From contig DUAE01000059.1 of NCBI GenBank assembly GCA_012960975.1, positions 69,760-133,759 of the forward strand: DNA of 64,000 nt, written 5' to 3'. Every line of letters starts with the position of its first letter. The stretch's first letter is position 1. Shown here piece after piece: positions 42,742 through 61,198 of this stretch. A model generated the notes under the pieces. The model did no database searches. It had not been told where the DNA came from and saw nothing but the letters and a program-made list of their open reading frames with translations. Source of the stretch: Candidatus Poseidoniales archaeon (GTDB lineage Archaea > Thermoplasmatota > Poseidoniia > Poseidoniales > Thalassarchaeaceae). The translations under genes and the position numbers were made by a program.

Positions 42742-42826
42742 TGGTGCAGGGGGTGGGATTCGAACCCACGAAGGCCTTGCCACCGGAGCTTAAGTCCGGC
42801 CCCTTTGACCACTCGGGTACCCCTGC
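42742..42826 (-). tRNA. tRNA-Leu (anticodon UAA), class II with long variable arm, CCA encoded
   Basis: The reverse complement folds as a cloverleaf. The acceptor stem is GCAGGGG/CCCCTGC and the D arm is CCC-GAGTGGTCAAA-GGG. The anticodon stem CCGGA/TCCGG carries the loop CTTAAGC. The variable arm is TGGCAAGGCCTTC and the T arm is GTGGG-TTCGAAT-CCCAC. The 3' end is ACCA. Confidence 0.9.
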
Positions 42827-57516: not shown

Positions 57517-57555
57517 AGATGTATACCTCGAATAGAACGACCAAGAAGATTGGCC

Positions 57556-60468
57556 TCAACGAAGCACGATAGCTTCCGAATCTCGACTGTCTAAAATAAC
57601 CTTCAATGGCTTTTCGATTTGTATATGTCGAAGTGGTCCGAATTTAGTTTCAGGTTCGAAAGAATCTAGCCAATCCCAATCAACTAAATCATCATGCCCA
57701 ATCGTTAGATAACCAATATTGAAACTGACAATATTTTGGAAAAAATGAGTTCCTTGACTCGGCTCGACATGAATATCCGACATCGGCACCTCAACAATTG
57801 CTTTAGCTCCCATTATCTGATTCCACTCAACTGGGATTCCTAATGATGGATCTGATGAACCCCATCGGCCAGGTCCGATAAGCAGATAGGGACGTTTCTG
57901 TTTACGTAAAATTGCATCGATAGCTTCAATTTCATCAACTAAATTCGTTGTTCTCATCCTATCGAGTTTACTTGGATTGACGTATACAACATCGCGAATA
58001 TCATCGATTACCCCATTACCCAATGATTTGCTGCTGATTACTACTGCTGAATTTCGGTCGACTTCAGAAAGGTCGATATCGATGTCGACAGAATCATCCA
58101 TCATCGTTCTCACCTGTAAAAGAGCGAATTTTCGTTTATTGGATTTTTCATCAATATTTACAGCAAATTCGATTTCAACCGGCGAGCCTAAATAACTCTC
58201 ACAGGTTGAAAGAACATGGTGAAGAATCTCTGAGAGGGGGAATCTACCATGTTTGAGAATAGGTGCAAAAGTTACGAGGCGAGGGCCCCCAGTTACCATT
58301 ATCGAGTCGACAATTCTGTCATCCGAGACCACGTAAGTTGATCCGACTAAGGATAGAACACCGTCGAGTTCTGCTATTTCAAGGCCATATTGTTCAAGGT
58401 TTTTCTCTTCATTCGAATAAACTTCACCATCTTCTTCGATCATTGGTATCGCGTAGAAATTCCTTTGTGAACTCTCCAAAATAGCTTCAGTGCTATGAAA
58501 TTGATGAATACGCTTCGGCTGACCGGGGCTATATCGCAGACATTTACCCCCCATCGCGACTTGCCTGCCGAGGCCGATACAAATCGCAGCCATTCCATCT
58601 TCGGATTCTAGTGGTGCTACTGGGTAGTGATTGTGGCTGCGAGCGGCACCCGAAATATGTGGATAAAATCTACCATTGACTTCATTTCCAACCAATTCTT
58701 GAACGACCACTGCCATCTGTTCGTCTTCTATTGAATTTGGTGTGGCGCTGACATAGGCTTTTGCACCGCGGTGATAGGTCGAAGCGTAAACTAATTTTAT
58801 CGCTTCAAGCAATCGCCGTAATCTTACTGAAAGATCTGGGTGGTCATTAGCCAACATATGGGTCGCATATACTCCGGCGAATGGTTGGTGACTCGCATCT
58901 TCGAGAAGGGAAGATGATCTGACAGCAAGCGGCCAGGATGTGTACTCCAGCATAACTGACAAATCTTCGATTAAATCCTCAGAAAATGAACTCGCTTTGA
59001 ATGCAGCATCAACATCATCATCGCTTTCATTTTCATGAATGAATTTGTCCAAATTATTTTTCATAATGAATTCATTGAATACTTCAGTTCCAATCACTAC
59101 CGATTTTGGAACGATGAAATCGACATCAGGAAAAGCAGAATCTAAACCTATATCTGGCATTTTTGTGAAGAAAAATGCTAAACCTCGTCCTTTTCCTCCT
59201 AAACTACCCTTGCCGATTCGGAGGAAATCAGAGTTGTTCCCGGTTTTTTCGTGATCCTGAATCGTCCGTGTGTGAACCAAATTCAAGTGTAATTCGACTA
59301 GATCGGCAATATGTTGTCGAGCCTCTTCTAGTGTGTCAAAATCATCTAGTGTCAAGGGTCGCATTTGAGCGGCTAAGGTAAATTCTGTTCTCGTCCTTAA
59401 CCAGTGAGAAAAATGGTTTCGGTTAGCATGATATGTGACTGATTCGATTGGTGCTTCACGTAGACATTCGATAAATTCGGCCAACGTCGAAGCGCGAGCA
59501 ACTTCTTCGCCTTCGATTGAGCGAAATATAAAATCGCCAAATCCCATTTTTTCGACCATAAATTCTGCAATTCTTTTGTACAGTGCTGTATCTTCTTTGT
59601 GGAGAAACCGAACGCCGAGCGATTCAGCATCTTCTTTTAATTCAAGATTTTTTGATTGAAATAAAATTGGAGTATTGCTGTGCCTAGATTGAATGAATTT
59701 GACTAATTCTAGGCCAGCAGAGTCTCGGTTACCACCTAGATTTGGGAATTTCCCATCAGTGAAAACACCAATGATATTGTTGTGATAACGATCTATAATT
59801 GAGCGAGCGGATTGCATATCCGTTGCGAGTAGAATTTTCGCACGAGCCCGAAGCCGCAGGAGTTTTTCGTCAAGGTTCCCTCCTTCGCCCATTAGGCGAG
59901 TGGTTTGTTTTACGAGTTGAGTGTAGAGTAGTGGCAAATATGCCGAATAGAAACGCCGACTATCTTCCACCAACAATATCACTTGCACATCAGCATCGCT
60001 CACATCATATGCAACATTTTTTTCATCTTCTATCAGTTTGCAAATAGACAATAGTATTCTGCTATCTCCAGTCCAAACAAAGATCCGGTCGATTCCGTCA
60101 CCAGCATGAAGTGTGGCCAATTCACGGGTGTTATGACTTAGTAATATTACCGGCAGGTCGGTGATAATTGACTTTACTTCACGGCCAAAGGCATTGACAT
60201 CCATCGAACCAACTCGGGCCATGGTAATGACGAGGTCGAATTGCCTTTCGCGAATAAGTTGGAGTGCATCTCTGGCTTCCCGGCTGTGTATGATTCGCGG
60301 AGATTGTGAAAGGTTCAATTCGGCATATTCTTGCCTCATAATCTCCGCGAGGTAGCCCGATTCTTCGAGTAGATAATAATCGAAAGGACTGGCGACGAGA
60401 AGCACATCTCGAATTCGAAAAGGTGTCAGTCTTTCGAAGCGAGACCAATCGGACATGTCTTTCACCAT
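57556..60468 (-). CDS. Receiver-like domain(s) + PEP/pyruvate-binding (PPDK N-terminal ATP-grasp) domain protein, function unknown
   Basis: The N-terminal CheY-like segment is IRDVLLVASPFDYYLLEESGYLAEIM...FDLVITMARVGSMDV, and a second is VILLVEDSRRFYSAYLP. The central ATP-grasp motif is GKGSLGGKGRGLAFF...AVRSSSLLEDAS...FAGVY. The conserved C-terminus is PYLLIGPGRWGSSDPSLGIPV. I see no phosphohistidine swivel (TGGxTSH) and no PEP-utilising TIM barrel. Confidence 0.7.
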   Translation of the reverse strand: MVKDMSDWSRFERLTPFRIRDVLLVASPFDYYLLEESGYLAEIMRQEYAELNLSQSPRIIHSREARDALQLIRERQFDLVITMARVGSMDVNAFGREVKSIITDLPVILLSHNTRELATLHAGDGIDRIFVWTGDSRILLSICKLIEDEKNVAYDVSDADVQVILLVEDSRRFYSAYLPLLYTQLVKQTTRLMGEGGNLDEKLLRLRARAKILLATDMQSARSIIDRYHNNIIGVFTDGKFPNLGGNRDSAGLELVKFIQSRHSNTPILFQSKNLELKEDAESLGVRFLHKEDTALYKRIAEFMVEKMGFGDFIFRSIEGEEVARASTLAEFIECLREAPIESVTYHANRNHFSHWLRTRTEFTLAAQMRPLTLDDFDTLEEARQHIADLVELHLNLVHTRTIQDHEKTGNNSDFLRIGKGSLGGKGRGLAFFFTKMPDIGLDSAFPDVDFIVPKSVVIGTEVFNEFIMKNNLDKFIHENESDDDVDAAFKASSFSEDLIEDLSVMLEYTSWPLAVRSSSLLEDASHQPFAGVYATHMLANDHPDLSVRLRRLLEAIKLVYASTYHRGAKAYVSATPNSIEDEQMAVVVQELVGNEVNGRFYPHISGAARSHNHYPVAPLESEDGMAAICIGLGRQVAMGGKCLRYSPGQPKRIHQFHSTEAILESSQRNFYAIPMIEEDGEVYSNEEKNLEQYGLEIAELDGVLSLVGSTYVVSDDRIVDSIMVTGGPRLVTFAPILKHGRFPLSEILHHVLSTCESYLGSPVEIEFAVNIDEKSNKRKFALLQVRTMMDDSVDIDIDLSEVDRNSAVVISSKSLGNGVIDDIRDVVYVNPSKLDRMRTTNLVDEIEAIDAILRKQKRPYLLIGPGRWGSSDPSLGIPVEWNQIMGAKAIVEVPMSDIHVEPSQGTHFFQNIVSFNIGYLTIGHDDLVDWDWLDSFEPETKFGPLRHIQIEKPLKVILDSRDSEAIVLR

Positions 60469-60521
60469 GGTGTCCGATTCGGGTCATTAGCCATGAAAGT
60501 TCAGACAGCGGCATTAGGGGG

Positions 60522-60546
60522 TGTCCCGCGCGAAACACGCGGGACA
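60522..60546. promoter_or_regulatory. Perfect 9-bp GC-rich hairpin (TGTCCCGCG-cgaaaca-CGCGGGACA) upstream of the 970-aa gene
   Basis: The structure is read directly from the sequence. It is followed on the plus strand by (GT)5 at 60547-60556 and the palindrome TTTGAAaTTCAAA at 60556-60568. It lies 55-80 nt upstream of the ATG at 60468 on the minus strand. Confidence 0.5.
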
Positions 60547-60721
60547 GTGTGTGTGTTTGAAATTCAAAGTAATTTTTCTCGGCCAGTTTCACGCGTTTTT
60601 CCACGGTTTCCTTGAGGTGTGTCTTTCGCATCATAACCAATTGCATTGGTCAGTTTTGCCCGGCCACGAAGTCCGGAAAAACCAATCAAAATTCTGGCAC
60701 GGCTAGAGTGATTGTGGGTGA

Positions 60722-60752
60722 GGGGGCGTTGTTGACGCCCCCCCACGTTTTT
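60722..60752 (+). terminator. GC hairpin (GGGGGCG-ttgttga-CGCCCCC) followed by T5 on the plus strand; terminator-like
   Basis: The 7-bp all-G/C stem can be extended by GTGG/CCAC. It is followed by CG and then TTTTT at 60748-60752. The T-run is present only in the plus-strand reading, yet no plus-strand CDS precedes it. Confidence 0.4.
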
Positions 60753-60777
60753 GTGCATCCCATCCTCGCTCAATCTC

Positions 60778-61152
60778 TCACCTCTGAGCGTTCGAATTAT
60801 CATTGTCAAATCGCGCCTGGAGTTCATCCATGCGTTTTCGGAGCAAACGGTTGACAGTTTCACCATCAATCGCTTCACGTTGAATATAATCTCGAGCAGC
60901 ATAGCGTAATACAACATCAGGTGTTTCTGCTCGAATCTTACAAAAATCATGCATCAAAACGGTCAAATCAGGGCCTAAATTTACCTCGACCCGATCTCCC
61001 ATTGAAGGCAATGGTTCGTTGAGGAATTGACGTACTGCGGAGCGAATCACATCGGATCGATTCCGCATGCCGTCTAATCCGACGCGCTGATCTAATGCCA
61101 AGAGGTGGTCTTCTGGAATTCGTAGCGAGACCATTGGACTTGGACCACTCAT
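60778..61152 (-). CDS. Ribbon-helix-helix (CopG/MetJ-Arc family) DNA-binding protein, apparently tandem RHH
   Basis: The N-terminal MVSLRIPEDHLLALDQRV....RNRSDVIRSAVRQFL is a canonical RHH. A second RHH-like segment is VLMHDFCKIRAETPDVVLRYAARDYI. Confidence 0.7.
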   Translation of the reverse strand: MSGPSPMVSLRIPEDHLLALDQRVGLDGMRNRSDVIRSAVRQFLNEPLPSMGDRVEVNLGPDLTVLMHDFCKIRAETPDVVLRYAARDYIQREAIDGETVNRLLRKRMDELQARFDNDNSNAQR

Positions 61153-61198
61153 GATGCTTCCTCAGGCTCAGCAGATAGCGGTCAGCATATGAATGTAT

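Follow-up and report, generated by a model that had tools for sequence, protein, structure and literature searches.

A small-protein gene with embedded, conserved RNA structure in a hairpin-rich intergenic region of marine group II-b archaea

Introduction

What is carried by a gap of some 300 nucleotides (nt), dense in GC-rich hairpins, between two genes of a marine archaeon? The gap lies at positions 60469-60777 of a 64,000-nt stretch of contig DUAE01000059.1 (positions 69,760 to 133,759, assembly GCA_012960975.1, Candidatus Poseidoniales archaeon, family Thalassarchaeaceae), referred to below as the window, and it separates the gene of a ribbon-helix-helix (RHH) regulator from that of a 970-amino-acid (aa) protein, both on the minus strand. 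Here we describe the locus as the home of an unannotated family of small proteins and of a structured mRNA element that is new and specific to this archaeal family, with no free-standing small RNA, and on balance we favour reading the region as the second half of a two-gene operon on the minus strand of marine group II-b archaea (Thalassarchaeaceae), formed by the RHH gene and the gene of the small protein.

Few planktonic archaea are as abundant as those of marine group II; to our knowledge there is no cultured member, and almost nothing is known of their gene regulation. The original prediction, made from the letters of the sequence, had taken the gap for a non-coding spacer holding a plus-strand small RNA, a minus-strand 5' leader of the 970-aa gene, or both. 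The stretch 60469-60777 (309 nt, all of which was folded) was examined with its flanks, and positions 60300-61100 were read on both strands.

A protein-coding gene in place of the spacer

Across the genus the segment 60547-60843 is conserved at 72-76% identity (DNA search, 40 relatives), and each relative has, after the RHH gene and on its strand, an open reading frame (ORF) of 74-86 aa. In the window this frame is a 69-aa gene for a small basic protein at 60564-60773 on the minus strand, with a TTG start codon at 60773, where most relatives have ATG, and a TGA stop codon at 60564-60566; an in-frame ATG at 60803 would extend it to 79 aa, an extension that is not conserved beyond the genus. Each of 28 relatives keeps the frame open (28 of 28), and stop codons interrupt the other five frames in all but 0-3 of these relatives, the plus-strand ORFs, including one of 80 aa at 60612-60854, being closed in nearly all relatives and so rejected as genes. 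Differences in length among the relatives are in-frame insertions and deletions.

The manner in which the central 28 codons change is that of a gene. Diversity at codon positions 1, 2 and 3 is 0.285, 0.188 and 0.543, pairwise codon differences number 3944 synonymous and 3232 non-synonymous, and the invariant Ser, Leu, Arg, Ala and Gly residues use between four and six synonymous codons each, invariant Pro residues also varying in codon, with switches between the AGY and TCN codons of Ser at invariant positions. From these patterns of substitution we take the small gene to be protein-coding, with selection acting at the protein level on the central 28 codons. In public annotation near-identical entries are named "hypothetical protein", and the protein recorded for this assembly is also 69 aa long.

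The stretch had been described as a non-coding spacer with only short ORFs of poor quality, and this description has to be given up: the conserved gene fills most of it, leaving a true intergenic part of about 95 nt (60469-60563), and a stand-alone non-coding RNA is not borne out. The surroundings had furthermore been called AT-rich, which holds only in a moderate sense as the G+C content of the window is 40-49%. On the other hand every hairpin and repeat that had drawn attention to the stretch was found again when the sequence was re-read. These include a 13-nt palindrome (60556-60568) over the stop codon, an ACCAAT/ATTGGT hairpin of 6 bp (60636-60650) and a pair of CCGG tetramers (60660-60677). 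The palindrome is not kept in the relatives, whose sequences after the stop codon were inspected, and the ACCAAT hairpin is complete only in the clade of the window, where the codons of a conserved peptide make it up; neither motif is more than a by-product of codons. The remaining hairpins, as will be seen, are a different matter.

The small protein

The small protein is basic, rich in arginine and lysine, and predicted to be disordered, with an AlphaFold model that has no secondary structure and a predicted local distance difference test (pLDDT) score of 52. No match to it was found in Pfam, NCBIfam, PADLOC or PHROGs, a profile search of the PDB returned one hit, which was not significant, and the ESM Atlas held no match scoring at least 0.8. 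An exhaustive profile search brought only 25 representatives, of which the short ones belong to the same family and the long ones are eukaryotic proteins with multiple IQ repeats. One family member (P0025) ends in a peptide translated from a Nextera adapter, and is thus a database entry truncated by adapter contamination.

The eukaryotic matches are drawn in by the central basic motif of the small protein, G-F-x-G-x-x-x-R-A-K/R-L, which resembles the calmodulin-binding IQ motif; the profile matches proteins with 7-16 IQ repeats, and those with 13-16 repeats are reached at E values of 1e-25 to 1e-17 (P0017, P0021). The small protein, however, lacks the I-Q pair that defines the motif, Pfam IQ does not match it, and the high scores are sums over many repeats, so that the likeness is one of a short motif and not of homology, probably a convergence of short basic amphipathic segments.

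A regulator gene followed directly by a small gene with a putatively coupled start is also the layout of type II toxin-antitoxin systems. The small protein nevertheless matches no toxin family in Pfam, NCBIfam or PADLOC and is predicted to be disordered, and the RHH and small-gene pair is single-copy, syntenic and vertically kept throughout the family, unlike mobile loci; a toxin-antitoxin pair was ruled out on the family tests of the small protein.

RNA structure at the 5' end of the small gene

The coding signature of the central codons, an excess of change at the third position, is not found in the first 21 codons, where third-position diversity is 0.164 and does not exceed that of the first position. 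All 28 sequences have GGG for Gly5 and CAC for His7, and hardly any codon change is seen at Gly12, Gly13, Pro18 and Leu19. The first 20 or so codons are constrained as nucleotides, and it is an RNA constraint that dominates there.

This constraint belongs to what we term the 5' element (about 60716-60797, minus strand), which comprises a Shine-Dalgarno (SD) sequence, a hairpin P1 in most genera, a box of 12 nt and a hairpin P2. P2 is a G/C-rich hairpin of 11 bp at 60718-60746 on the minus strand, with arms at 60736-60746 and 60718-60728, inside codons 10-19, and it is the same structure, read on the minus strand, as the all-G/C stem (60722-60742) followed by T5 (60748-60752) which had been noted earlier as terminator-like and which was present on re-reading. 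Aligned with MAFFT, 59 distinct sequences from 8 genera have 96.4% of the cells of P2 paired and double changes at 5 of its 11 pairs, and sliding the partners by 1-3 columns reduces the pairing to 48-60%. One pair is G·U in 42 of the 59 sequences and others alternate between G-C and G·U; as each of these G·U pairs is an A·C mismatch on the plus strand, the helix belongs to the strand of the mRNA. The compensatory changes furthermore alter the protein, replacing Gly/Glu together with Pro/Ser and Val/Ala together with Thr/Ala, which indicates that RNA pairing is the primary constraint at P2. No other helix appears in the RNAalifold consensus of the family.

Between P1 and P2 lies the 12-nt box (60753-60764, minus strand), which forms codons 4-7 (D-G-M-H) and is predicted to be single-stranded. 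Its columns are invariant in the 59-sequence alignment, and it persists in genera where the protein profile fails.

P1 spans the junction with the gene before the small gene. The RHH gene (60778-61152, minus strand, 124 aa) is the first cistron, and its stop codon (60778-60780) is followed 4 nt beyond by the start of the small gene. A strong SD match of seven bases (60778-60784) overlaps this stop codon; it stands at the right distance from the start codon, and both are conserved among the relatives. P1 (60767-60790, minus strand) pairs a 5' arm in the last RHH codons (60785-60790) with a 3' arm that overlaps the small-gene start codon (60767-60772), and holds the RHH stop codon and the SD in its loop. 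It was predicted by RNAalifold from 28 sequences and is in the minimum-free-energy fold of the window; over the 59 sequences 86.6% of its cells are paired, with double changes at 3 of 5 pairs.

Two further readings of this end of the gene were tried and dropped. A -1 frameshift site would need a conserved slippery heptamer 5-9 nt upstream of a stimulatory hairpin; the A-rich run before P2 is a proper heptamer in some genera only, with unrelated codons elsewhere, and is spaced 0-2 nt from the stem. The covarying positions that had suggested a pseudoknot of the SD with the 3' arm of P2 are better explained as an extension of P2.

The 3' element

A second structured part follows the stop codon of the small gene. 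Between the stop codon and the hairpin named P3 runs a C/A-rich, single-stranded (AC)5 tract (60547-60556, minus strand), the (GT)5 of the plus strand as it had been noted and as it was found again on re-reading; an (AC)3-6 tract stands in most of the genera that bear P3, and a C-rich variant in three genera. P3 itself is a hairpin of 9 bp at 60522-60546 on the minus strand, which begins 17 nt past the small-gene stop and is followed by ACCCCC, with no U-run. The re-read sequence confirmed it as a perfect hairpin, with arms at 60522-60530 and 60538-60546 and a loop of 7 nt; among relatives the loop varies from 3 to 7 nt. In three divergent genera P3 takes the form of a C-rich tract and a G/C stem, often with a UUCG loop, and then a C-run.

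The pairing of P3 was assessed on two alignments. In an unfitted MAFFT alignment of 16 distinct sequences pairing is complete (100% of cells) and double changes occur at 5 of 9 pairs; in an alignment of 46 sequences (A7) fitted to the covariance model of the hairpin (R2) the figures are 98% of cells and 7 of 9 pairs, with 17 U·G cells, these in the sense strand only. For both P2 and P3 none of 500 shuffles reached the observed paired fraction or covariation score, and slid controls were 24-60% paired. P2 and P3 are RNA helices of the sense strand, kept by compensatory change.

The folding energies agree with this assignment of strand. The minus strand of the whole 309 nt folds at z = -2.96, a fold equalled by none of 100 shuffles, and its two sub-elements at z = -3.2 and z = -3.4; the plus strand of the same 309 nt gives z = -1.42 against the shuffle control. 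Perfect GC-rich hairpins of at least 8 bp number only 105 in the 1.59-Mb genome, so that the occurrence of two within 230 nt is unusual. The claim that the region holds conserved, structured RNA is upheld, with conservation of sequence and covariation at syntenic loci.

A bacterial-type intrinsic terminator was considered and rejected, as P3 on the minus strand is followed by A-C-C-C-C-C and, on the plus strand, the T5 beside P2 is not conserved and the helix is mismatched. After the P3 variant and upstream of the XPD helicase gene, some 45-65 nt past the small-gene stop, a second short conserved hairpin with a GCC stem and a purine-rich loop of 4 nt was seen in six loci (L107, L108, L112, L118, L119 and L122; genera g3 and g6).

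Distribution and copy number

The protein profile of the small gene finds a match in 87 of 124 Thalassarchaeaceae genomes and in none of 124 Poseidoniaceae. The covariance model of the 5' element (R1) reaches further, finding a single match in each of 134 of the 150 Thalassarchaeaceae genomes and covering 12 of the 13 genera, some of which the protein profile misses; when genomes of at least 85% completeness are considered, it matches 58 of 63 Thalassarchaeaceae, against one marginal match in 86 Poseidoniaceae. In two genera the ORF is of only 37-57 aa, its C-terminal part is unrecognisable and there is no P3, and still the 5' element is kept, which makes the 5' RNA element the most deeply conserved feature of the locus.

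The model R2 is likewise single-copy, and lies close downstream of R1 in every genome for which coordinates were compared. The combination of an (AC)n tract and a hairpin occurs once in this genome and other G/C hairpins are rare and share no common flanks, and on these grounds, together with the single copy of R2, a dispersed repeat resembling repetitive extragenic palindromic (REP) elements or terminators was rejected. As a separate observation, the start of contig C9 bears two copies of one identically flanked 8-bp hairpin, at a distance of about 455 nt (positions ~25 and 480), which may be a repeated element.

Comparison with known RNAs and elements

At the gathering thresholds of Rfam (release 15) the only match in the window is a tRNA at 42745-42826, and in E-value mode the best scores over 60200-61000 are 14-20 bits, against cut-offs of 35-74. 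The original prediction had failed to match the region to signal recognition particle (SRP) RNA or RNase P RNA, rightly so, as neither has a match in the spacer (RF01857, RF00373); both were rejected as identities for it, and the genome has genuine copies of each above cut-off on two other contigs, C52 for the RNase P RNA (234 bits) and C55 for the SRP RNA (117 bits). A C/D-box small RNA was rejected as the sequence reads no C and D boxes, and an element like the origin recognition box (ORB) of a replication origin as there is one copy only, whose G-string is not conserved. A search of the literature found no description of this mRNA element. It had been said beforehand that the idea of a structured RNA would fail if there were no Rfam match, no covariation or conservation at syntenic loci and no discrete transcript ends; the Rfam match is indeed absent, whilst conservation and covariation are both present.

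Gene neighbourhood and downstream junction

The neighbourhood is conserved, running from an HD phosphohydrolase through the RHH regulator and the small protein to a kinase-like protein and/or the XPD helicase. Residues 8-45 of the RHH (CopG-type) protein match Pfam RHH_1, weak NCBIfam matches to CdrS and aCcr1 both lie under the cut-off, and identity across relatives is 55-98%. Its AlphaFold model has helices at 15-21, 32-45, 60-74, 78-94 and 100-121, an order that would suit a single-chain tandem RHH and from which the chain may be made of two ribbon-helix-helix units and a C-terminal helix, at a pLDDT of 50 which is unreliable and too poor to confirm a tandem RHH.

The gene that follows P3 differs between lineages. 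In the clade of the window and in three other genera it is the 970-aa gene, which encodes a receiver/PPDK-N protein (57556-60468 in the window), and elsewhere it is the XPD helicase. In a comparison with loci L004-L016, L035 and L060-L094, the 970-aa gene sits between the small gene and XPD, is missing from that place in the remainder of the window's own genus as well as in several further genera, and is an insertion or loss polymorphism at a fixed junction. In most lineages that bear it, its start codon stands 90-99 nt past the small-gene stop, and in one genus about 145 nt.

Directly after the 970-aa gene, and some 15-20 nt before the XPD start codon, there is a motif of 23 nt (57531-57553, minus strand) in which a CCAA-N5-TTGG inverted repeat precedes a TATA-like TTCTATT. 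The motif hardly varies among many of the family's genera and was seen also upstream of XPD in loci L004-L016, L018, L036-L044 and L075-L086. To judge from its sequence it looks like a conserved promoter and operator for XPD.

The remaining true spacer before the 970-aa gene (60469-60521, minus strand) was inspected in aligned tails. It contains a 10-nt motif (60496-60505, minus strand) which ends 27 nt before the ATG of the 970-aa gene and is common to other genera that carry this gene, a candidate TATA-like promoter element for a leaderless mRNA. Just after it comes a mini-ORF of three codons (ATG, two codons and a stop; 60481-60491, minus strand), whose first bases match the XPD start region of relatives and which may be a remnant of the junction.

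Expression of the locus

Four metatranscriptome assemblies from four studies hold the locus at 95-99% identity. One RNA contig of 594 nt corresponds to 60555-61148, another to 60581-61163 and a third to 60553-60784, so that the RHH gene and the small gene are covered as one unbroken block (from 60553/60581 to 61148/61163), the upstream edge of which is near the RHH start codon at 61152. Two of the contigs, from two studies, end at 60553-60555, within the AC repeat, whose length varies between strains; this may be a weak hint of a transcript end, and equally an assembly break at a microsatellite. Positions 60406-60552 are left uncovered, a gap that carries no inference.

Proposed function of the RNA elements

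The most likely function, we infer, is translational control of the small gene together with formation or protection of the 3' end of a bicistronic mRNA. Ribosomes ending translation of the RHH cistron would open P1 and so expose the start codon of the small gene, with the result that the small protein would be made in step with the RHH protein (translational coupling). P2 and the invariant box would tune or gate translation of the small gene, possibly through a bound factor. P3 would define or protect the 3' end of the bicistronic mRNA, and would insulate it from the promoter of the next gene, be it the 970-aa gene or XPD. Whichever gene comes next, P3 stands past the end of the small gene and directly before a conserved promoter-like motif, which is where a 3'-end element is to be expected.

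There are precedents for each half of this proposal. Hairpins for translational coupling are found between coat and replicase in the RNA phage MS2 and in many bacterial and archaeal operons, and the locus shares with them a start codon predicted to pair with the end of the upstream coding sequence, an SD that overlaps the stop codon and a gap of 4 nt; it differs in that P1 is not in all genera and in that it adds a better-conserved hairpin in the downstream ORF and an invariant unpaired box, neither of which is needed for coupling. P3 is akin to bacterial stabiliser hairpins (REP-type, as in malE-malF) and to intrinsic terminators in being a stable G/C hairpin with compensatory change, after a stop codon and before the next promoter, but it is a single-copy feature of one locus and not a dispersed repeat as REP-type stabilisers are, and it does not have the U-run of an intrinsic terminator. 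Termination in archaea normally occurs at oligo-T tracts without a hairpin.

Several observations weigh against this proposal. P1 is weak or absent in several genera and is lost from the consensus of the 59 sequences, and coupling through P1 cannot therefore be a universal function. Simple coupling leaves the strict invariance of the unpaired 12-nt box unexplained. With no U-run after it, P3 is unlike an intrinsic terminator of bacteria and also unlike the oligo-T signal usual in archaea, and it is missing from two genera, and from part of a third, which retain the 5' element. The RNA contigs show neither strand nor true ends, and two of them stop just before P3 and not after it. Finally, the sequences compared are related, so that independent compensatory events are fewer than the counts of cells given for P2 and P3 would suggest.

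Alternative explanations

The invariant box, the likeness in flanks between P2 and P3, the missing U-run after P3 and the gaps in the occurrence of P1 and P3 among genera keep in contention a role in which the hairpins are bound by a basic protein or another factor. Here the hairpins would be sites for an RNA-binding factor acting in trans, most plausibly the small arginine-rich protein encoded between them, in an RNA-protein complex that is autoregulatory or controls read-through, in place of passive elements for coupling and stability; we hold this to be possible, though at odds of well below even. As to the flanks, both hairpins are preceded by a C/A-rich single strand and followed by A-C-C; the family-wide invariance of the unpaired box suggests recognition of a specific sequence, and the protein is of the very basic, predicted disordered kind described above. 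P3 also tends to occur together with the longer form of the protein that has the basic motif and is absent from the genera with short, divergent ORFs, but this association is confounded by shared ancestry and some genomes have the motif-bearing protein without P3. Nor does the model R2 of P3 detect P2, the two hairpins being different as sequence motifs.

A bolder form of the same idea, to which we give a little less credence again, is that P2, P3 and the box would be paired recognition sites for the encoded protein, and the locus would work as a switch of RNA and protein complete in itself and confined to marine group II-b archaea, their equivalent of control of the lambda N/boxB type. The likeness to pairs of arginine-rich peptide and RNA hairpin, such as lambda N/boxB and the Tat/TAR of human immunodeficiency virus (HIV), lies in a small, basic, predicted disordered protein encoded beside conserved hairpins with conserved flanks; there is no relation in sequence or family and the host is an archaeon, so that this is an analogy only. 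Such a switch, if real, would let the operon regulate itself, or would govern read-through into the gene that lies downstream, be it the kinase-like gene or the XPD repair gene.

Less probable is the second reading of the original prediction, that the hairpin at 60522-60546 is part of a minus-strand 5' leader which regulates the 970-aa gene. The hairpin is a real RNA structure of the minus strand, as had been said, and lies 54 nt upstream of the 970-aa start codon; the distance of 90-99 nt from the small-gene stop is kept in most lineages, and no RNA contig bridges or excludes the stretch. However, the same hairpin is at the same position in many genomes in which XPD comes next and the 970-aa gene is absent from that place, its presence tracking the upstream small gene and not the gene downstream. 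As P3 is present whichever gene follows, it is better read as a 3' element of the transcript of the RHH and small genes than as a 970-aa leader.

It is improbable to a greater degree that the small ORF is untranslated, the stretch 60522-60797 being a structured non-coding RNA or the 3' untranslated region of the RHH mRNA with the open frame as a by-product. Such a view would draw on the best-conserved first 60 nt, which are constrained at the level of nucleotides and not of codons, on the two genera with a short ORF and an unrecognisable C-terminal part, on the ability of the covariance model to find the element where the protein profile fails, and on a predicted protein without a fold. It is opposed by the third-position excess, synonymous switching and in-frame indels of the central codons, by a frame that is open in every relative when the others are closed, and by the conserved start codon with its strong SD at the right distance; the divergent genera, moreover, still keep an ORF with a related basic motif.

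Slightly less credible again is that the inverted repeats act as DNA, for example as operators of the RHH regulator encoded next door, as symmetric changes in half-sites that co-evolve with a dimeric binder can mimic RNA covariation; but 17 cells of P3 and more than 70 of P2 are G·U or U·G pairs, which break the symmetry of DNA, and these frequent pairs occur in the sense orientation only, the stem sequences vary freely while pairing is kept, and the loop ranges from 3 to 7 nt. Least probable of all, and rejected here, is the first reading of the original prediction, a plus-strand small RNA of 150-240 nt ending at the G/C hairpin and T5 (60722-60752), for which there speak the 7-bp G/C stem and T5 on the plus strand of the window and a best sub-threshold Rfam alignment, to SymR, of 19.6 bits against a cut-off of 61, and against which there stand an A·C mismatch that breaks the helix where the minus strand has a conserved G·U, many more G·U pairs that suit the minus strand only, a T-run that is not conserved in several genera, the ordinary fold of the plus strand, no Rfam match, conservation that tracks the minus-strand frame and RNA cover that is continuous with the RHH gene.

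Significance

For genome scans the locus offers a caution, in that spacers of these genomes which are GC-rich and full of hairpins can be small genes with embedded RNA structure. For the family it provides a concrete and testable element, a single-copy mRNA element of about 90 nt found family-wide, in which RNA pairing overrides the choice of codons and drives correlated amino-acid changes, and it adds to this a second covarying hairpin and an unannotated family of small basic proteins.

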